A stretch of 64,000 nucleotides of DNA from Longimicrobiales bacterium (GTDB lineage Bacteria > Gemmatimonadota > Gemmatimonadetes > Longimicrobiales > Gaopeijiaceae). Below are positions 9,878-37,608 of this stretch, one piece after another. The stretch spans positions 64,001 to 128,000 of the forward strand of contig CAXXKM010000002.1 in the NCBI GenBank assembly GCA_963664435.2. Direction: 5' to 3'. Position 1 is the stretch's first letter; each line of letters begins with the position of its first letter. A program made the position numbers and the translations under genes. The notes under the pieces were generated by a model that searched no databases, was not told the DNA's origin, and saw only the letters and a list, made by a program, of their open reading frames with translations.

Positions 9878-11278
9878 ATGATGGGGTGCGGCCGACCCTG
9901 TCGGACCTCGTCGACAGGGACATCCCCCGTGGCGGCGGTCGCGCTGGCGGGGATGATCTGGGCCTTCGGGTGCGGGGACGGAGCGACCGAACCCACTCCC
10001 CCACCTCCTGACCCCCCGCGTCCGACTACGGCGACAGTCACGCCCGGCACCGCCCAGCTCACCGCCTTGGGCGCCTCGGTGCAATTCGCGGCACAGGTGC
10101 TCGACCAGAATGGGCAGGCCATGAGCGGGACCCCGGTGTCGTGGACGAGCAGCGACGCTTCGGTCGCGACGGTGGACGCTTCGGGCCTGGTGACGGCGGC
10201 GGGCAACGGGACGGCGACGATCACGGCCACCGCGGGGAGCGTGTCCGGGACGGCGACGGTGATTGTGGCCCAGGAGGTCGGATCGGTGACGGTGACGCCC
10301 GCCGCCGATACGCTGGTGGCGTTCGGAGACACGGCGCGGCTCTCCGCCGAGGCGTTCGACGCGAACGGCCACACGGTGGAGGGCGCGGAGCTCTCGTGGG
10401 CATCTGACGACGACGCGGTCGCGACGGTGGACCCTTCGGGCCTGGTGACGGCGGCGGGCAACGGGACGGCGACGATCACGGCCACCGCGGGGAGCGTGTC
10501 CGGGACGGCGACGGTGACGGTGGCCCAGGAGGTCGGATCGGTGACGGTGACGCCCGCCGCCGACACGCTGGTGGCGTTCGGAGACATGGCGCGGCTCTCC
10601 GCCGAGGCGTGCGACGCGAACGGCCACACGGTGGAGGGCGCGGAGCTCTCGTGGGCATCTGACGACGACGCGGTCGCGACGGTGGACCCTTCGGGCCTGG
10701 TGACGGCGGCGAGCAACGGAACGGCGACGATCACGGCCACTGCGGGGAGCGTGTCCGGGACGGCGACGGTGACGGTGGCCCAGAAGGTCGAATCGGTGAC
10801 GGTAACGCCCGCCGCCGACACGCTGGTGGCATTCGGCGGCACGGCGCGGCTCTCCGCCGAGGCGTTCGACGCGAACAGCCACACGGTGGAGGGCGCGGAG
10901 TTCTCGTGGACATCCAGCGACACGCGGGTCGCGACGGTGGACGCCTCGGGATTGGTAACCGCTGGTGACGCGGGTGAGGCGGTGGTGACGGCCACGTCGT
11001 CAGGGGTGAGCGGGCATGCGGATCTGGCCGTCGTGTCCCCGGCGCCGGACTTGGCGTTCATCGGCGTGTCGCCCGGCTCTGCCACGGTGGCGCCTGGCGA
11101 CGCGGTGACGTTCACATTCCAAATCCGCAACAACGGCACCGTTGCTTCCGGCGCAACCACGATCCGGGCGATGAGGTCGCCGAACCCCATCATAAGCACC
11201 CGGGACACCGAGCTCCGGTCCTACTCTCTATCGTCGCTGGCCGCATCCCGGGAACGCGCGAAGGAAAACGCGGGTTGA
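9878..11278 (+). CDS. Big_2 Ig-like repeat lipoprotein, probably C-terminally truncated
   Basis: Lipobox 'AFGC'; near-identical 255-nt repeats ('WASDDDAVATVDPSGLVTA'); partial CARDB-like domain at the end. Confidence 0.85.
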   Translation: MMGCGRPCRTSSTGTSPVAAVALAGMIWAFGCGDGATEPTPPPPDPPRPTTATVTPGTAQLTALGASVQFAAQVLDQNGQAMSGTPVSWTSSDASVATVDASGLVTAAGNGTATITATAGSVSGTATVIVAQEVGSVTVTPAADTLVAFGDTARLSAEAFDANGHTVEGAELSWASDDDAVATVDPSGLVTAAGNGTATITATAGSVSGTATVTVAQEVGSVTVTPAADTLVAFGDMARLSAEACDANGHTVEGAELSWASDDDAVATVDPSGLVTAASNGTATITATAGSVSGTATVTVAQKVESVTVTPAADTLVAFGGTARLSAEAFDANSHTVEGAEFSWTSSDTRVATVDASGLVTAGDAGEAVVTATSSGVSGHADLAVVSPAPDLAFIGVSPGSATVAPGDAVTFTFQIRNNGTVASGATTIRAMRSPNPIISTRDTELRSYSLSSLAASRERAKENAG

Positions 11279-11291
11279 GATTGGAGAGCGA

Positions 11292-14200
11292 ATGAGAAGC
11301 CAATGCAGCCTGAGCAGCCGAGCAGCCGGGGTTGCCCGGACACACGCACCAGGGCAGGCGGCCGCGCTGACGATTGCGCTCCTTGCAGCGTGCGGCGACG
11401 AGTCCGTGGTCGATCCCCAGGCGGCCCTCGTGCCCGCTTCCGAATCGAGCGCGTTGTCGGTGTCCACAACGAGCGACCGGGACATCCTGATCGCCCTCTA
11501 CGAGGCCACCGACGGGCCGAACTGGCTGAACTCCGACAACTGGCTGACGGACGCGCCCCTCGGGCAGTGGTATGGCGTGGACACGGACGCTTCAGGTCGC
11601 GTGACTACGTTGCGGCTGGCCGGCAAGTGGGATTTCGAGGAGAACCACTACGTAGACCATGGCCTTGCTGGTCCGATCCTGGCGGAACTGAGCGGCTTGG
11701 CCAGGCTCGAACATTTGGATCTGGGGGTCAATAAGCTGTCGGGTCCCATCCCGACGAACTCAGCCGATTGGCAAGCCTCCGAGAGCTGGATCTGGGGATC
11801 AACGAGCTTGTCGGGTCCATCCCGACGGAATTGGGCAGCCTGGCCAACCTCGAACGCCTGAATCTCGGCCGCAACGAACTGTCCGGTCCCATCCCGACGG
11901 AACTGAGTCGATTGGCTAACCTCGGAAGCCTGGATCTCGAGTATAACGCACTTTCTGGTCCGATCCCAGCCGAACTCAGTGGATTGGACAACCTCATATA
12001 CCTGCAATTGGGGGGCAACCATTTGTCGGGCCCCATCCCGGCGGAGCTGGGCGATCTGGTCAACCTCTCAACCCTGGATCTCAGCCAGAACGGGTTGTCG
12101 GGTCCCATCCCGGTGCAACTCGGCGGCTTGACCAACCTCGGGAGCCTGTATCTCAGCGAGAACGAGTTGTCGGGTCCCATTCCGACGGAGCTGGGCGGTC
12201 TGGCCAACCTCAGGTTCCTGTATCTCCGCTCGAACGATTTGTCCGGGACGGTGCCATTGAGCTTCAGGCAACTCTCGCGATTGACCTCGTTCGGATTCGA
12301 GGGGAACGCAGGCCTTTGCCTTCCGGCGGATCTGGTCGCGTGGTACGAGGCGCTTGAAAACCGGGATGGTCGGGTCTGCCCGGACCTGGAGGTGTTGCGG
12401 GCGCTGTATGAAGAGGTGGGCGGGGAAAGCTGGACGAACGCCGACGGGTGGCTTGGAGACGGCCCTCTCGGCGAATGGTACGGGGTAGATGTCGATTCGT
12501 CAGGCTTTGTGTCCGCCTTGGACCTTCAGGGCAACGGACTCTCGGGCAGCCTGCCCACACGACTGGGAGAGCTGGCGGGCTTGACGACGCTGCGGGTGGG
12601 AGACAACGCGCTGACGGGTCGTTTGCCGCTCTCTCTCTCGCAGACGCCGCTCCGGGAGTTGTATTACGCCGACACGCAGATGTGCTTCGCGACAGAAGCG
12701 TGGTTTCGGGAGTGGCTGGCCTCCGTTCCACAACACGAAGGCACGGGAGTACAGTGTCCCCCGCTGACCGACCGGGACATCCTCGTCGCGCTCTATGAGA
12801 CGACCGGCGGCCCGGACTGGGAGGACAGCGAGAACTGGCTTGCGGATGCGGCGCTCGGAGAATGGTCGGGAGTGAGCACGGATGCCGACGGGCGCGTCGT
12901 CGAGCTCGACCTTCGGTGGAACGAGCTGTCCGGACCCATTCCCGCGGCCCTGGGCGGGTTGACCGAGCTGCAAACACTGATCCTCTTCAACAATGAATTG
13001 ACGGGTTCGATTCCGTCAGCGTTGGGCGACCTGGCCAAGGTCCAACTCGTCGTCCTCGCAGGAAACCGGCTTTCAGGGCCGATCCCGGCAAGGTTGGGCG
13101 GGTTGGCCAGCTTGGAAGAGCTCTACCTCAACGGCAACGAGTTAACATCCGTCCCACCGGAATTGGGCAGACTTTCCAACCTTCGAGAACTGAGTCTCAA
13201 CTTCAACCGCCTGGCGTCCGTCCCCCGGGAGCTGGGCGAACTGGTCAACTTGCGCTACCTGGGGCTCTGGTCCAACGAACTGACATCCGTACCGCCGGAG
13301 TTGGGCAATCTGGCCAACCTGCGAGAGATGGATCTCGACGAGAACCGGCTGATATCCGTCCCGAGAGAATTGGCCCGGTTGGATAGCCTCGAGGTTCTGT
13401 GGCTTGCATCAAACGAGCTGACCTCCGTACCGCCGGAGTTGAGCGAATTGGGCAACCTGTGGCTTCTGAGTCTCTCGGGGAACCGGCTGACCGATTTACT
13501 GCTGGGACCCGACGGCTATGCCAACCTGGAGGTCCTGGATCTTTCGTCCAACGAGTTTGCATCCTTCCCCCGCGAGTTGGGCGGACTCGCCAACCTCACG
13601 CAACTGGAACTCGACGGGAACCGACTGACCGACGTTCCGCCAGGACTCGGCGCAGTCGCCGGTGCGCGCCGCCTTCTCGCATCCGACGACGAGTCGCCAT
13701 CCCCGCCCAGGAGATGGAGCGAATCGGGGAATCCCTGGAGGCTGGATATCAACGGAAGCCCGTTGACCGTTGTCTCTGCGAAACCGAACTCGTTGGGTAC
13801 CTTGCGGACCCATTTCGAACTCAACTGGAGCCGGTCGGCGGACGTGGGGTCGCGGGTCCGTGACTTTTCAAGCCTGGAGATCCTTGATCTTTCGTCCAAC
13901 GCCCTGAGCGGCTCGCTCCCGGCGGGGTTGGTCGAGTTCACCGGCCTGACGAGCTTGAGTGTCGCCGGCAACGCCGGGCTGTCCGGTGCTCTGCCGTTCG
14001 ATCTGACGGCGCTGGAGCATCTTGAGGATCTGCACACGACGGGGACGGAACTATGCGCGCCTGCGGATCCCGAGTTCGTCGATTGGCTCGAGGGCGTGAC
14101 GCGGCAACGGGTGGCGCTTTGTGATCGCGGCGACGCGGCCGCCTATCTCACCCAGGCCGTGCAGTCACGCGAGTTCCCGGTGCCGCTGGTCGCGGGCGAG

Positions 14201-31330: not shown

Positions 31331-32278
31331 TCAGCCCTCCGGACCCTGCCCCGCCTCCTGCTCGTCGCTGGACAGCGTGCCGATGCTCTTCACGACCAGC
31401 GTGCCTGAACCCTCGTTGGTGAAGATTTCGCGCAGGAGGCTGTCGCGCGCGCTGCCGGAGATCAGGTGCACGCGCGGAACGCCGCCCTCCATGGCACTCT
31501 CGATGGCCGACGCCTTGGCCAGCATTCCCCGGGCGAGCACACCCTGCTCGCGCAGGTCGCGGAGCCCCGCGAGATCCAGGTAGGAGATCAGCGTCGCCGG
31601 ATCCTCGAGAACCCGGAGGATGCCGGGCGCCGCCATGGTGAATACGAGCTTCGTGGCCTCGAGCGCCTGTGCGAGCGCGCTCGCCACCGTGTCGGCGTTG
31701 ATGTTCAGGAGCCGCCCCTCCGAGTCCGCCGAAAGCGGGCTCACCACCGGCACCCATCCCTGTTCCAGGAAGACGTGCAGCGACGAGGGGTCGACGGACT
31801 CGATGTCTCCCACGAAGCCGAAGTCCACCGGATCCGGGCCCTCGCCTTCCATCTGCACGGGAGGGCGCCGCGTGGCCGTCACCAGACCGGCATCGACCCC
31901 GGAGACACCGACGGCCCGAATCCCCTGCTTCCGGCAAGCGCCCAGCAGGGTCGTGTTCACCTCGCCGCTCAGCACCTGGGTGGCGACGCGCAGGTCCTCG
32001 GAACGCGTCACCCGGCGGCCTGCCACCATGCGCGGCTCGTGGCCCAGCCGGCGCGCCAGAGCGGTTGACTGCGGCCCGCCTCCGTGCACCAGCACCAGCC
32101 GCACGCCAAGGGCGTTCAGGATCCCGACCTGTTCCATCAGAGCATCGATGCGCCCGGAACTCCGCAGGATCTCGCCGCCCAGCTTGAGGACGAAGATGCG
32201 TTCGCGGAAGAGGCGCACGTAGGGCGCGGCCGCGCGCAGGCCGGCAAAGCCCCGGTCGGTCGCCCGCGAGCGCTTCAA
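31331..32278 (-). CDS. argB: Acetylglutamate kinase
   Basis: 'VLKLGG', 'VHGGGPQ', 'DFGFVG', 'NINADT' and 'GMLAK'; TTG start overlaps the argD stop. Confidence 0.93.
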   Translation of the reverse strand: MKRSRATDRGFAGLRAAAPYVRLFRERIFVLKLGGEILRSSGRIDALMEQVGILNALGVRLVLVHGGGPQSTALARRLGHEPRMVAGRRVTRSEDLRVATQVLSGEVNTTLLGACRKQGIRAVGVSGVDAGLVTATRRPPVQMEGEGPDPVDFGFVGDIESVDPSSLHVFLEQGWVPVVSPLSADSEGRLLNINADTVASALAQALEATKLVFTMAAPGILRVLEDPATLISYLDLAGLRDLREQGVLARGMLAKASAIESAMEGGVPRVHLISGSARDSLLREIFTNEGSGTLVVKSIGTLSSDEQEAGQGPEG

Positions 32279-33465
32279 GCTGGCTCCTCCAGCAGGGCGC
32301 GCAGGGCTTCGGCGAGTTGCGCTGCTTCTGACGCCCGCAGCGTAAGCGGAGGCATGACCCGCAGCCATGCCGGATCCGAGCTGGTTCCCGCAAGGATGTC
32401 GCGGTCAAGCAATGCGTCGCGTATCTCGCGCGCGGTGGTTCTGCACTCGAGCCCGAGCAGCATGCCGCGGCCGCGAATCCCGAGCACGGGACCCGCAACG
32501 CAGCTGCCGCGAATCTCTTGCTCGCGCATCGCCACCCGCTCCAGAAGCCCCTCGTCGCGGATGGTGTCCAGCACCGCTTCGATGACCGCGCACGCGAGCG
32601 GTCCTCCCCCGAAGGTGCTCCCCATGTCCCCGATTCGCAGCTGATCGCCCAGAGCTCGCGACATGATGAGGGCGCTGCAGGGGAACCCGGCGCCGAGCGC
32701 TTTCGCCGTGGTGAGCACGTCCGGAACGACGCCGGCGTGCTCGATTGCGAAGGGCTTTCCGCTCCGCCCCATCCCGCACTGCACCTCGTCCGCGATCAGC
32801 AGGGCGCCGTGGCGGTCGCAGGCCGCGCGGAGGGCACGCACATAGTCCGTTTCGAGCACGTACGCGCCCGCGATGCCCTGGATGGGCTCAAGGATGACGG
32901 CGGCGGTCCCGTCGTCGATGGCGGCAACCGCCCGGGCCGCGTCGTCGCGGGGTACGAACGTCACCTCGAACGGGGTGTCCGGGAAGCCGTACCAGCGCTC
33001 GCGGGCCCGCCAGGTCACGGCGGCGGCCGCAGCCGAGCGGCCGTGGAATCCGTGCTCCAAGGCCACCACGCGCCCGCGGCCCGTGCTTCTGCAGGCGAGC
33101 CGCAGTGCGTTCTCGTTGGCCTCCGCCCCCGAATTGACGAAGAAAACGCAGTCGAGATCGGCCGGCGCGAACTCGGCGAGCTTGTCCGCGGCGCGCGCCC
33201 GCACCCTCAAGGCGTTCACGTTGCTGGTGAACATCAGCTCCCCCGCCTGCCGGCGGACCGCTTCCAGCACCTTCGGATGCCCGTAGCCCAGCGCGCACAC
33301 CGCGTGTCCGCCGTAGAGATCGAGCAGCCGGCGCCCGTCCGCACACCTCAGGTACGCGCCCCGGCCCGACACCGGCTCCACCGGCAACTGGCCGTACACC
33401 TGCGCCAGATGGCGCGCTTCGGCCTGGCGCGCGTCCGGGACGAGCGTCGGGGTTGGTGCGCTCAT
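32275..33465 (-). CDS. argD: Acetylornithine aminotransferase (class III PLP)
   Basis: 'NSGAEANE', 'FHGRS', 'DEVQCGMGR', 'AKALGAG' and 'STFGGGP'. Confidence 0.9.
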   Translation of the reverse strand: MSAPTPTLVPDARQAEARHLAQVYGQLPVEPVSGRGAYLRCADGRRLLDLYGGHAVCALGYGHPKVLEAVRRQAGELMFTSNVNALRVRARAADKLAEFAPADLDCVFFVNSGAEANENALRLACRSTGRGRVVALEHGFHGRSAAAAAVTWRARERWYGFPDTPFEVTFVPRDDAARAVAAIDDGTAAVILEPIQGIAGAYVLETDYVRALRAACDRHGALLIADEVQCGMGRSGKPFAIEHAGVVPDVLTTAKALGAGFPCSALIMSRALGDQLRIGDMGSTFGGGPLACAVIEAVLDTIRDEGLLERVAMREQEIRGSCVAGPVLGIRGRGMLLGLECRTTAREIRDALLDRDILAGTSSDPAWLRVMPPLTLRASEAAQLAEALRALLEEPA

Positions 33466-33520: not shown

Positions 33521-34576
33521 TCATATCCACGCCGGGGGCGGGGCGGTCAACCCAGTGGTTTCGGGAAGTCCGTGCAGGACATTCATCCATTGGATCGCCC
33601 CTCCGGCGGCGCCCTTGACCAGGTTGTCGAGCGCCACCGTCACCGCCAGCGCGCCCCGGTTGACCGCGATGGCCAGATGGGCGTGATTGCTGCCCACGAC
33701 GTCCTTCAGCCTCGGCGGAACATCGACCAGGTGCACGAACGGCGCCTTCGCATAGTGGTCCGCATAAGCGTCCCGCACCTGTCTGGCGTCGACGCCGTCG
33801 AGCAGCCGCCCGTGCATCACCATGTAGATTCCGCGCGCGAACGGCCCGGAAGCGGGGACGAAGTGCAGTCGAACGCCCCGGCCGGTCAGCGCCCGCAGGA
33901 TCCCTTCCACCTCCGGCGCATGGCGATGCGCGAGCGGCTTGTAGGCGAACATGTTGGCGTGCCGCGTGGGATGGTGGGTGGTCGGCCTGGGGACGCGGCC
34001 GGCCCCGGTACTGCCCGTCACCGCGCTGACCATCAGGCCGGGATCGACCAGTCCGGGGCGCATCAGGGGCATACTCGCGAGCAGCATGCCGGTCGCGAAG
34101 CATCCGGGATGACCAACGTGGCGGGGCTTGCGGGTGGTGGCGTGCTCCGGCAACAGACTCCGGAACATCGGCATGCGATCCGGGGCGCCGTGCTCGAGCC
34201 CGTACACGCCCTCGTACGCGTCGGCGTCGCGAAAACGAAAATCCGCCGAGACGTCGACCACGCTGGCGGCGCAGTGCCGCTCCTCGCATATGCCCAGAGC
34301 CCGGTCGACCAATCGGGCGCTGGCTCCATGGGCGGCGGTCGAGAAGATGGCGCAGCGGTCTCCGAGCGTGTCGGGAAGCTCGTCCAGGGACGTAAAGCGC
34401 AGCTCCGGCCACGCGCCGCGCAGGTTCGGGAAGACAGCTTCCACCGGCTCGCGCCTCCGGCTTCGCGACACGACCGCGGCCGGCCGGATGCACGGATGGG
34501 ACGCGAGCAGACGCAGCAACTCGCCGCCGACGTAGCCGGATCCGCCGAGCACGATGGCTGGAATCGCCTCAGGCAT
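33521..34576 (-). CDS. argC: N-acetyl-gamma-glutamyl-phosphate reductase
   Basis: 'GGSGYVG', 'DVSADFR', 'PGCFAT', 'HRHAPE' and 'DNLVKGAAG'. Confidence 0.95.
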   Translation of the reverse strand: MPEAIPAIVLGGSGYVGGELLRLLASHPCIRPAAVVSRSRRREPVEAVFPNLRGAWPELRFTSLDELPDTLGDRCAIFSTAAHGASARLVDRALGICEERHCAASVVDVSADFRFRDADAYEGVYGLEHGAPDRMPMFRSLLPEHATTRKPRHVGHPGCFATGMLLASMPLMRPGLVDPGLMVSAVTGSTGAGRVPRPTTHHPTRHANMFAYKPLAHRHAPEVEGILRALTGRGVRLHFVPASGPFARGIYMVMHGRLLDGVDARQVRDAYADHYAKAPFVHLVDVPPRLKDVVGSNHAHLAIAVNRGALAVTVALDNLVKGAAGGAIQWMNVLHGLPETTGLTAPPPAWI

Positions 34577-35627
34577 GAGCGCCCAGCCCGATGCGGGCGG
34601 CGACGGCGTCTCCGAGCCGGGCGCCGTGCGTCATCGCGTTCACTCCGTCCAGCCCGGTCCTTTCCCTGATGATGTCGAGCCCGACCCTGTTGTCGGTAGC
34701 GGGCCCCGTGATGAGAGCAGGCGACATCCCGAACTCCTCCTCGAGCAGCCTCGCGCCCCCCCAGGCAGCGACCGGATCGGACGCGCACAGGAGCAGGCAC
34801 GAGATGTTTTCGCGCACCGCGTCGTCCCGCAGGATGGCCTCCACGCCGTATGCCCCGAGGATTCCGTCCCCCAACTCGAACACGATCGCGTCGGGCCGTT
34901 CGCTCGCGAGCAGTCGCAACATGGTGCGCGCCAGGTCGGGCGCGTTCCCGGGCCCGGTGCTGACCACGCCGAAGTCGGTGAAAATGGCGGTGTTGCGCGC
35001 GCCAGCGTCCTCCATGGCCAGGATGTCGCGCCGCAGCGAGACCCCGGTCGCCTTGAAGGCGTCGACCACATGCCCCATGTGCCGCAGGCGCCCGATCACC
35101 GCGCATGCCGCCGCCGTCTTGCCGGAGTTCATGCAGGTGCCGGCAAGGGCTACCACGGGGACGCCTTCCAGTTCCAGTCCGGGCCGGACGTCCAGCGGGT
35201 CGCCGCCCACCCGGGCCGGCACGCCCACGCGCTCGCCGAGATAGGGGAACTCCAGCACCACTCCAAGCACACGCGCGTCGAAGGGCTGTCCCAGGGAGGC
35301 GTTGACGGCGTCGCATATTCCCAGCACGCCGCCCATGTTCAGGATCTGCACGATGTCGCCCGGCCGCGTGGTCTCGGGCACGTAGCCGGAATAGCCGAAC
35401 AGCGCCTTGCGGTGGCCCAGCGCGCCCACGATCACATCCCCCCGGCGCACGCGCGCCATGCGCCCGCTGGCCAGCTCGAGCTGGTTGTAGGAGGACTTCT
35501 CGTTCAGCACCTCGACCGCGACCATCACGCCCTCCTCGCTGGGAATGCGGTCGCCCACGCGGATTTCGCGGTCGGCCCCCAGGTCCGAGGCCACGGACGC
35601 CAGCTTGTCGATGACGATGCTACGCAT
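34569..35627 (-). CDS. DUF1611-like P-loop protein embedded in the arg operon
   Basis: 'AGTCMNSGKT', 'KATG...DAGA', 'FTDFG..ST' and 'ELGDG'; overlaps argR and argC by 8 nt each. Confidence 0.75.
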   Translation of the reverse strand: MRSIVIDKLASVASDLGADREIRVGDRIPSEEGVMVAVEVLNEKSSYNQLELASGRMARVRRGDVIVGALGHRKALFGYSGYVPETTRPGDIVQILNMGGVLGICDAVNASLGQPFDARVLGVVLEFPYLGERVGVPARVGGDPLDVRPGLELEGVPVVALAGTCMNSGKTAAACAVIGRLRHMGHVVDAFKATGVSLRRDILAMEDAGARNTAIFTDFGVVSTGPGNAPDLARTMLRLLASERPDAIVFELGDGILGAYGVEAILRDDAVRENISCLLLCASDPVAAWGGARLLEEEFGMSPALITGPATDNRVGLDIIRERTGLDGVNAMTHGARLGDAVAARIGLGAHA

Positions 35628-36096
35628 TGATCCCGCTCCGCGGACTCGTCAGCCCGGCTTCGCGGCGCAGCCGGCCCACCAGGGCGCGCTGCTCGCTGCG
35701 GTTTCGCGTTGCGATGAAGATGGTATCGTCGCCCGACAGCGTCGCCAGGACCTCCTTCCAGCCCATCCGGTCGAGGAAGAGCGCGATGCGCTGGGCGGCG
35801 CCGGTCGCGGTGCGCACCACCGTGAGGTTCGGACCTGCCGCGTGCACCGCGCGCGCATAGCTCGAGAGGGTGCGCCGGTCCTCCTCCGAGAGGTTGAGAG
35901 ACCGCAGGCTGTAGCCATCCGCGCCCTTCATCGCTCCCAACCGGGCCAGGTCGCGGCTGATGCAGGATTGGGTCACTGCGATCCCGCGGTCCCCCAGCAG
36001 TCGCACGAGTTCCGCCTGGCTGGCCACTTCGCGGTTCTCCAGGATGTCCGCGATCACCGCCCGGCGCCGTGCCGGAGCTGTTCGTCGATCTGACAT
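35620..36096 (-). CDS. argR: Arginine repressor
   Basis: 'SQAELV', 'VTQSCISRDL' and 'TLSGDDTIF'; alternative start 36126. Confidence 0.93.
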   Translation of the reverse strand: MSDRRTAPARRRAVIADILENREVASQAELVRLLGDRGIAVTQSCISRDLARLGAMKGADGYSLRSLNLSEEDRRTLSSYARAVHAAGPNLTVVRTATGAAQRIALFLDRMGWKEVLATLSGDDTIFIATRNRSEQRALVGRLRREAGLTSPRSGINA

Positions 36097-36197: not shown

Positions 36198-36441
36198 CCT
36201 GCGAAATCGTCAACCCCTGCCGGTTCGACGCGGCTGCCGAATCATCATCCGATGGCCCCTTGCGCAATGCCGGTGCGAGTCCGCGAAAGGCTCCGGAATG
36301 CCCCTCGCGTGCGGCGAACCACTCGGGTCGCGCTATCCCGGACAATCTCGTGCAATTCCGGCAGCACCGGGAATGGAGAAATGCCGCCGATTCCGGCAGA
36401 TTACCGGTCCTTTCCAACCGCTTCCCGCACCCGGAGGCTTC

Positions 36442-37608
36442 GTGAGCGATCTCACCAGGCGCGACCTCCTTTCACGGCCGGTGGAGCACGTCGACATCCG
36501 CGCTTTCGACGCCCGCCCGGTCATCGACCAGTACCGGCGCACGGCCATCCAGACCCGCAACCTGGCACGTGCAGCGGACATCTGTTCCGAGATGCTCGCC
36601 GACCGGGACTGCACGGTCATCCTCACCCTCGCGGGGTCGCTCGTGTCCGCGGGCCTCAAGAAGGCGCTGGTGACGCTGATCGATTCCGGCATGGTGGATG
36701 TGGTGGTGTCGACGGGCGCCAACATGGTGGATCAGGACTTCTTCGAGGCCCTGGGGTTCCGGCACTACATGGCGCCCGGCTCGCCCGAGCATCCCGTGGT
36801 GCCCGATGAGCGCCTGCGCGAGTTGGCCATCGACCGCATCTACGACACGTACATCGATGAGAACGAATTGCGCGTTTGCGATCAGACGATGAGGCGCATC
36901 TTCGATCGGCTTCCGCCGCGCCCCCACTCCTCACGTGAAATCCTGACCGCGATGGGCCGCTTTCTCGACGGCGCCTTTCCCACGTCGGAATCCGTGGTGC
37001 TGTCGGCATACCGGCAAGGGGTGCCGATCTTCGTCCCCGCCCTCAGCGACTGCTCCGCCGGCTTCGGCATCGTCCTGCACCAGGCCTCGGCCGCGCGCGC
37101 GGGACGCGAAGCGGTGTCGCTGGACTCGGGGAAGGACTTCCTCGAACTGACCCGGATCAAGCTCGCATCCCGGGCGTCGGGACTGCTGATGCTGGGAGGA
37201 GGAGTCCCCAAGAACTTCGCCCAGGACATCGTCGTGGCCGCGGAAATGCTCCAGGAGGAGGATGCGTCCCCGGGCCGGCCGGCAGTTTCGGACGATGCAG
37301 CCTCCCCAGGGGCAGCGGATTCAACGGATGGGACCGGCGCGGCGACAGCGGCGGAGGTGACGATGCACCGGTACGCCGTGCAGCTCACGGTCGCGGACAG
37401 TCGCGACGGTGCCCTGTCCGGGTCCACACTGCGCGAGGCCACGAGCTGGGGAAAGGTGGAAACCGCGCGCGAACAGATGGTGTTCTGCGAGGCGACGCTG
37501 GGGTTTTCGCTGCTCGCCAGCGACGCCTGGCATCGCCGGGCCTGGGAAGGCCGGCCCGCACGCAGGTTCGCGGATTGGCTGGATGAGCGCGCGGGCGCGA
37601 CGATGTGA
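36442..37608 (+). CDS. Deoxyhypusine synthase-like protein
   Basis: 'STGAN', 'IDRIYD', 'GGGVPKNF', 'DGALSGST' and 'EATSWGKV'; GTG start after GGAGG. Confidence 0.9.
   Translation: MSDLTRRDLLSRPVEHVDIRAFDARPVIDQYRRTAIQTRNLARAADICSEMLADRDCTVILTLAGSLVSAGLKKALVTLIDSGMVDVVVSTGANMVDQDFFEALGFRHYMAPGSPEHPVVPDERLRELAIDRIYDTYIDENELRVCDQTMRRIFDRLPPRPHSSREILTAMGRFLDGAFPTSESVVLSAYRQGVPIFVPALSDCSAGFGIVLHQASAARAGREAVSLDSGKDFLELTRIKLASRASGLLMLGGGVPKNFAQDIVVAAEMLQEEDASPGRPAVSDDAASPGAADSTDGTGAATAAEVTMHRYAVQLTVADSRDGALSGSTLREATSWGKVETAREQMVFCEATLGFSLLASDAWHRRAWEGRPARRFADWLDERAGATM

Follow-up and report, generated by a model that had tools for sequence, protein, structure and literature searches.

The second gene of an arginine operon in a Gemmatimonadota genome encodes a protein, here called X, that is probably the first enzyme of ornithine and arginine synthesis. 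X would convert L-glutamate to an N-acyl-L-glutamate, most likely N-succinyl-L-glutamate; ArgB, ArgC and ArgD of the same cassette would carry N-succinyl-L-glutamate to N-succinylornithine, an ArgE/DapE-type deacylase encoded elsewhere in the host would free ornithine, and the latter would pass through an ordinary carbamoyltransferase, ArgG and ArgH. The operon lies in a stretch of 64,000 nucleotides (the window).

The arginine operon of the window

ORF calls, combined with Pfam and NCBIfam scans, placed five genes on the minus strand in the order argR-X-argC-argD-argB. As described in the original prediction, X overlaps both of its neighbours, its start overlapping the argR stop and its stop the argC start by 8 nt each. 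The features are as follows.

35620..36093, minus strand: argR, arginine repressor (Pfam PF01316 and PF02863; start uncertain, the longest ORF running from 36126)
34569..35627, minus strand: X, a protein of 352 aa from the family of Steroidobacter ACG33_RS14135, predicted to act as an alternative N-acyl(succinyl)-L-glutamate synthase
35253..35627, minus strand: N-terminal domain of X, about residues 1-125, nearly all beta strand in the structure model
34581..35183, minus strand: C-terminal P-loop domain of X, residues 149-349, of the CTP synthase / dethiobiotin synthetase / DUF1611 type (VIA-align Z 14.9-17.2)
35115..35141, minus strand: P-loop GTCMNSGKT, X residues 163-171 (G169, K170 and T171 invariant in 180/180 aligned sequences)
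33521..34576, minus strand: argC, N-acyl-glutamyl-phosphate reductase (TIGR01850, 279 bits, above cut-off)
32275..33465, minus strand: argD, N-acylornithine aminotransferase (PF00202; the top NCBIfam models are acetylornithine transaminases, under their cut-offs)
31331..32278, minus strand: argB, N-acylglutamate kinase, 315 aa, with a TTG start overlapping the argD stop (TIGR00761 above cut-off)

Only the AA_kinase domain was found in ArgB, with no acyltransferase domain, in agreement with the earlier statement that it lacks a fused GNAT. An ARG-box-like pattern of our own choosing had no site near argR. Divergent from argR, a plus-strand gene of the deoxyhypusine synthase family occupies 36298-37608 and could connect polyamines with the supply of ornithine.

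Search of the source genome for known entry enzymes

The source genome (4.5 Mb in three contigs, 96% complete) carries argG and argH together at another locus, plus an ordinary ornithine carbamoyltransferase (OTC). Elsewhere in it, outside the window, 17 tRNA genes are packed into less than 3 kb (contig C2:689401-692178). Whole-genome searches for ArgJ (PF01960), for short GNAT ArgA (NF005840), for an AstE-type protein and, by tblastn, with the LysX and LysW of a relative were all negative, and nothing exceeded the cut-off of the long ArgA model, for which the sole match was argB itself; a NAT-domain search was also without match, but its control was equally silent. The reported lack of argA, argJ and lysW/lysX therefore holds for the 96%-complete genome. 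X itself matched none of the classical ArgA and ArgJ models (TIGR01890, NF005840, PF04768 and PF01960), and when queried alone it had no Pfam match below E 0.06, no NCBIfam match and no PDB sequence match.

Gene neighbourhood of the X family

At least 6914 of 8000 scored candidates were homologues of X. Those with names are labelled hypothetical, all of the 10 distant representatives being annotated as 'hypothetical protein'; the closest named record, 95% identical, is from a Gemmatimonadetes bacterium. The gammaproteobacterial-type sample consists of the best 80 genome loci of 582 found, in which argG directly precedes X in 79 and argC directly follows it in 78 (the other two being at contig edges), the usual order being argR-argG-X-argC-argD-argF'-argB-argH. 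In the Gemmatimonadota-phylum loci argC follows X in 36 of 36, giving 114 of 116 for the two genome sets pooled. The larger Gemmatimonadota group has the order argG-X-argC-argD-argF'-argB-(M20 deacylase)-argH-argR; these Gemmatimonadaceae-type operons carry their own M20 deacylase, so that only the first step is left without an assigned gene. At about 40% identity to X, an arg gene is next in 9 of 11 metagenome loci (argC in six, argF' in three) and two loci end at a contig edge; in three of the 11 (L227, L233 and L235) X stands in the arrangement (argG)-X-argF'-argH with no adjoining argC, and the ArgF' there has Q at position 92.

Paralogs of X at about 25-33% identity (n=15) have no adjoining arg gene. 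One group (L221-L224) shows the order flavin reductase, M20 peptidase, paralog, with a gamma-glutamyl transpeptidase in addition in L221; in a second (L135, L141, L143, L225 and L226) the paralog immediately precedes ABC-exporter-like genes, a PGA_cap gene being present in one case. Distant X-like paralogs on plasmids of Priestia (L142) and Bacillus paranthracis (L144) are found in phosphonate-type biosynthetic clusters with PEP-mutase-family, thiamine-pyrophosphate, ATP-grasp and carbamoyltransferase genes.

Distribution of X and of other entry modules

Among 201 Gemmatimonadota-phylum genomes (including the unpublished G053, G178 and G153), X was matched in 66, of which 65 are true X and one is a paralog outside arg operons (G043, E 8e-38), and ArgJ in 64, with an overlap of zero. 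Within family f4 (97 genomes), X was matched in 56 and ArgJ in 26, again with no overlap where about 15 shared genomes would be expected under independence; related genomes are not independent, so such counts overstate the exclusion. ArgC was above cut-off in 158 of the 201 genomes (a tally that also includes the unpublished G093), and the ArgC-bearing genomes without X and ArgJ that were read have LysW/LysX or a short GNAT ArgA, apart from one with no entry gene nearby.

In the gammaproteobacterial order (101 genomes), true X is present in 67, five matches near E 1e-30 having been left out as paralogs outside arg operons. ArgB lies in a 438-479 aa frame in 18 genomes of this order, none of which has true X, and a fused NAT domain was present in all three of the 18 that were scanned; ArgJ is absent from all 101, which makes this set uninformative on its exclusion with X. 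Long ArgA was above cut-off in none of the 50 X-bearing gammaproteobacterial genomes searched (of 79). X thus alternates with several entry modules, namely ArgJ, fused ArgB-NAT, short GNAT and LysW/LysX, and the phylogenetic profile against argA and argJ that had been suggested as a check came out in favour of the proposed slot. Two X-operon genomes, G144 (locus L178) and G186 (L179), have a second argC cluster, and that of G186 contains LysW and LysX, which shows that X can share a genome with LysW/LysX. LysW/LysX clusters have, between argC and the kinase, a conserved gene whose product of about 215 aa begins with M-C-R (L165:7286-7936, L168:6386-7057 and L179:8154-8801) and resembles a class II glutamine amidotransferase.

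Origin of the cassette

The five cassette proteins are 64, 75, 59, 71 and 69% identical (X, 75%) to those of gammaproteobacterial operon L002, a succinyl-type operon that is closest for all five, versus only 35-45% to native Gemmatimonadota arg genes, whereas ArgG and ArgH of the source genome are native-type (median 62 and 50%). In a quick tree built from 38 of 180 rows with no mixture model, X was nested in the gammaproteobacterial clade with L002 as its sister (support 100), and a topology uniting it with the main Gemmatimonadaceae-type X clade was rejected (p-AU 2e-8). Moreover, the argR/X overlap is placed as the argG/X overlap in L002, and the argD/argB overlap as argF'/argB. These matching positions indicate that argG, argF' and argH were dropped while X was retained with argBCD, and therefore that X belongs to the glutamate-to-ornithine half of the pathway. 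By these sequence comparisons, the window copy is a trimmed cassette from Gammaproteobacteria, in a genus having only ordinary OTC.

Both the observed distribution and the observed origin bear on whether X might be some other arginine-linked NTPase, either a deacylase only or a regulator or activator of ArgB or ArgC, with an unrecognised GNAT making N-acylglutamate. Such a role would fit the many non-ligase P-loop NTPases among the fold neighbours of X and the weak GNAT matches found outside the operons in several X genomes. It is nevertheless distinctly improbable, as X replaces four different entry modules and travelled with argBCD when the other three genes were lost. The possibility that X is the only deacylase was discarded, since a dedicated M20 gene is present in many X operons.

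The acyl group

According to PMC4581275, acetyl-type ArgF' is marked by Glu92, Asn185 and Lys302, and succinyl-type ArgF' by A, S, P, V or Q at 92, P at 185 and V, I or E at 302. With the position register set by motif, the 70 copies of ArgF' beside X in the gammaproteobacterial loci all have A92; 69 have P185, the remaining one being unmatched, and 68 have V, A or E at 302, with K302 in none. The Gemmatimonadaceae-type copies have V92 and E302 in 13 of 13. X-less relatives from the same order as the latter carry E, N and K at the three positions (6/6), which confirmed the register. The succinyl signature of ArgF' beside X indicates that the X family runs on succinylated intermediates, and the acetyl group of the original prediction is, with that signature in 70/70 gammaproteobacterial loci, probably wrong.

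A neighbouring succinyl-type ArgF', typical of the family if not universal, is absent from the source genome, and none of 19 genomes of the source genus had an ArgF' above cut-off; for the window copy we thus infer the acyl group from descent and not from a gene in the genome. This leaves some room for X being an entry enzyme that makes N-acetyl-L-glutamate, at least in this host. Consistent with it are the ordinary OTC in place of a succinyl-type ArgF', the three host ArgE/DapE-family deacylases above cut-off, the acetylation of glutamate by DgcN with the same C-terminal fold, and further X operons (L236, L133 and L134) with ordinary OTC or without argF'. Yet three signature residues mark the donor-type operons as succinyl-type, and X, ArgB, ArgC and ArgD would all have to have switched or be tolerant, which is at variance with an X still 75% identical to the donor-type copy; acetylation is thus unlikely.

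A succinylated arginine pathway is described for Bacteroides in PMC7311316. X shares with the BT3761-type N-succinylglutamate synthase of that pathway the proposed step and the intermediates, but the two proteins are unrelated and X has no match to any GNAT or ArgA model. If X makes N-succinyl-L-glutamate, X alone might not rescue E. coli delta-argA even as the entry enzyme, since a succinylated product need not suit E. coli ArgB.

The deacylation step

The 13 Gemmatimonadaceae-type X operons fetched have a gap or a gene between argB and argH, and the three read there are M20 deacylases. No argE was found in the window operon or in any of the 80 gammaproteobacterial-search loci. When 48 X-bearing gammaproteobacterial genomes and six of the source genus were searched for orthologs of the operon-type deacylase, none emerged (best about 28-35% identity). 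Three ArgE/DapE-family proteins of the source genome, at C1:1076281, C1:432400 and C2:645863, pass TIGR01910 (10 of its 23 M20 matches scanned), and one of them could release ornithine.

The missing ortholog keeps alive a reading of X as an ArgJ-like cyclic transacylase, which would move the acyl group from N-acylornithine or N-acylcitrulline to glutamate and so cover both entry and deacylation. It would also account for the exclusion between X and ArgJ, the lack of argE in these operons and the existence of argG-X-argF'-argH loci. The M20 gene or gap retained in the 13 Gemmatimonadaceae-type operons, together with the dispersed M20 enzymes present, argues the other way. X moreover showed no invariant nucleophile such as that of ArgJ, and we regard a transacylase as quite unlikely. 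For the preferred role as an N-acylglutamate synthase, gene order, the exclusion with ArgJ and ArgA, and the separate ArgE-like gene in many X operons all support the first-step slot to which X had been assigned.

In L236 (X-argC-argB-argD-?-argF-argG), a DDAH/arginine-dihydrolase-like (pentein) gene on the plus strand (10226-11296) lies between argD and an ordinary OTC, where a deacylase would be needed; a non-M20 N-acylornithine deacylase is a possible role for it.

Fold of X and its relation to DUF1611

The structure model of X (pLDDT 83.5) consists of a beta-rich N-terminal domain, with strands and no helices over residues 15-125, and a C-terminal P-loop domain. In isolation and with no alignment supplied, the N-terminal domain folded to a pLDDT of 42; its profile had no PDB sequence match, and the Atlas gave one unnamed match at 0.81. 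As fold searches with the whole model barely probe this domain, its fold is to be read as unmatched and not thereby new. The C-terminal domain resembles CTP synthase (Z 17.2, rmsd 3.1, 194 aligned), the DUF1611 structures 2G0T and 2OBN (Z 16.5 and 16.2), dethiobiotin synthetase BioD (Z 16.1, rmsd 2.9, 182 aligned) and DgcN (7XRJ; Z 14.9, rmsd 3.1, 179 aligned), near ties that do not single out DgcN as the relative.

DgcN is an acetyl-CoA-dependent D-glutamate N-acetyltransferase of domain composition PF17396 plus PF07755, and it has in common with X the C-terminal P-loop fold and glutamate N-acylation, the likely reaction of X. X matched neither of these two Pfam models nor the DgcN model NF041892, whereas a true DUF1611/DgcN member scores 254 and 549 bits (PF07755 and NF041892, respectively). 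PF07755 was weakly touched by 21 of 51 X-family members (best E 1.3e-5), and PF17396, the Rossmann-like N-terminal domain, which contrasts with the beta-rich one of X, matched neither X nor any of the 51. Profile-to-profile comparison of X with 18 DUF1611 proteins gave a probability of 45% (E 2e-4, 17% identity). All 18 have GK followed by M, K or R where X has GKT, and DUF1611 proteins have R, I or V at the position of K192 in X. In one order, 10 of the 67 X genomes also carry true DUF1611 genes. The Atlas label 'DUF1611' for clusters near X was discarded, being automatic and backed by no common Pfam.

The term 'DUF1611-like' is hence apt for the C-terminal P-loop fold (Z 14.9-16.5) and too close as a family label, given the silent models and the other N-terminal domain; in the comparison with DgcN that had been proposed, the folds proved related, with the HMMs silent and CTP synthase and BioD equally close. 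Taken as a whole, the original prediction is partly supported: it placed X at the correct step, probably chose the wrong acyl group and named too near a relative. The gene dgcN is also mentioned in PMC12363236.

Conserved residues and possible chemistry

Besides the three P-loop residues, K192 and E251 are invariant in all 180 aligned X-family sequences and D218 is present in 178. As all 15 paralogs outside arg operons share these invariant residues, the latter reflect the chemistry of the fold and not the arginine pathway. The best PDB sequence match of the X-family profile is BioD (E 2e-4), spanning the P-loop and the second lysine (K192). Enzymes of the dethiobiotin synthetase type work via an acyl phosphate, and the nucleotide-site residues Lys15, Thr16, Lys37, Asp49 and Glu108 of BioD have catalytic roles. 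Their lining of the nucleotide site is described in PMC9932657; D218 and E251 of X were matched to Asp49 and Glu108 by motif register only.

X has the same fold as the BioD and CTP synthase ligases, with a complete P-loop GKT and a second-strand lysine, but it is 13-18% identical to them, has an extra N-terminal beta domain and belongs to a different pathway, and its use of ATP is only predicted. The intact GKT and the second lysine point towards a ligase that depends on ATP and away from a CoA transferase. From model and sequence, X is predicted to bind Mg-NTP; it may convert succinate to an acyl phosphate and then join it to glutamate, in which case succinate, ATP and glutamate would be the substrates. 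We lean towards such an acid-amine ligase over a succinyl-CoA transferase like DgcN, with the two about evenly balanced. It weighs against a ligase that the acyltransferase DgcN works with the same domain and has retained the P-loop lysine and the glutamate, often with R at K192 (10/18).

A bolder proposal, which we hold tentatively and consider rather doubtful, is that X is a CoA-independent, ATP-dependent succinate:L-glutamate ligase with the BioD/CTP synthase fold, that the wider family is an unrecognised class of amide ligases, and that the four-gene cassette is a natural minimal module plugging the succinylated route into ordinary OTC. The wider family includes the paralogs beside gamma-glutamyl transpeptidases and ATP-grasp ligases and in phosphonate clusters. 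A search of the accessible literature found no proposal of an ATP-dependent N-succinylglutamate ligase.

Precedent and significance

The role is not new as a prediction: Steroidobacter ACG33_RS14135 (A0A127FCT3) is listed as a predicted alternative N-succinylglutamate synthase in section S1B of the GapMind 2026 study (PMC13759103). By that account its family lies in arg operons, excludes ArgA and bears a remote likeness to 7XRJ, all of which apply to X likewise. The two proteins are of similar length (357 versus 352 aa), the P-loop of ACG33_RS14135 being GTCMEAGKT, and in its cloned insert (supplementary file 4) roughly 50 residues among the N-terminal 85 (~60%) match X, as do the P-loop and later motifs, by eye and not by a computed alignment. 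Given this similarity, the arg operon and the lack of a usual ArgA in the genome, we assign X to the same family. The window X differs in its host, which belongs to Gemmatimonadota, in its trimmed cassette, from which argG, argF' and argH are missing, and in working with ordinary OTC. Section S1B of PMC13759103 makes no mention of a P-loop, an ATP-dependent mechanism or the exclusion of ArgJ. What is added here is the exclusion with ArgJ and fused ArgB-NAT, the trimmed and transferred cassette working with ordinary OTC, and the hypothesis of an ATP ligase. A search of the accessible literature on the X family and its relatives found no experimental test of any member.

The contiguous X-argC-argD-argB cassette is a ready unit for assaying the donor and cofactor, succinyl-CoA versus succinate plus ATP. 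Should X prove to be an ATP-dependent ligase, it would bring new enzymology to a textbook step, since the opening reaction of arginine synthesis is not known to proceed by this chemistry. If the proposed role is correct, a gene now called hypothetical would close the gap in arginine synthesis for abundant uncultured groups, including Woeseiaceae and relatives and many Gemmatimonadota.
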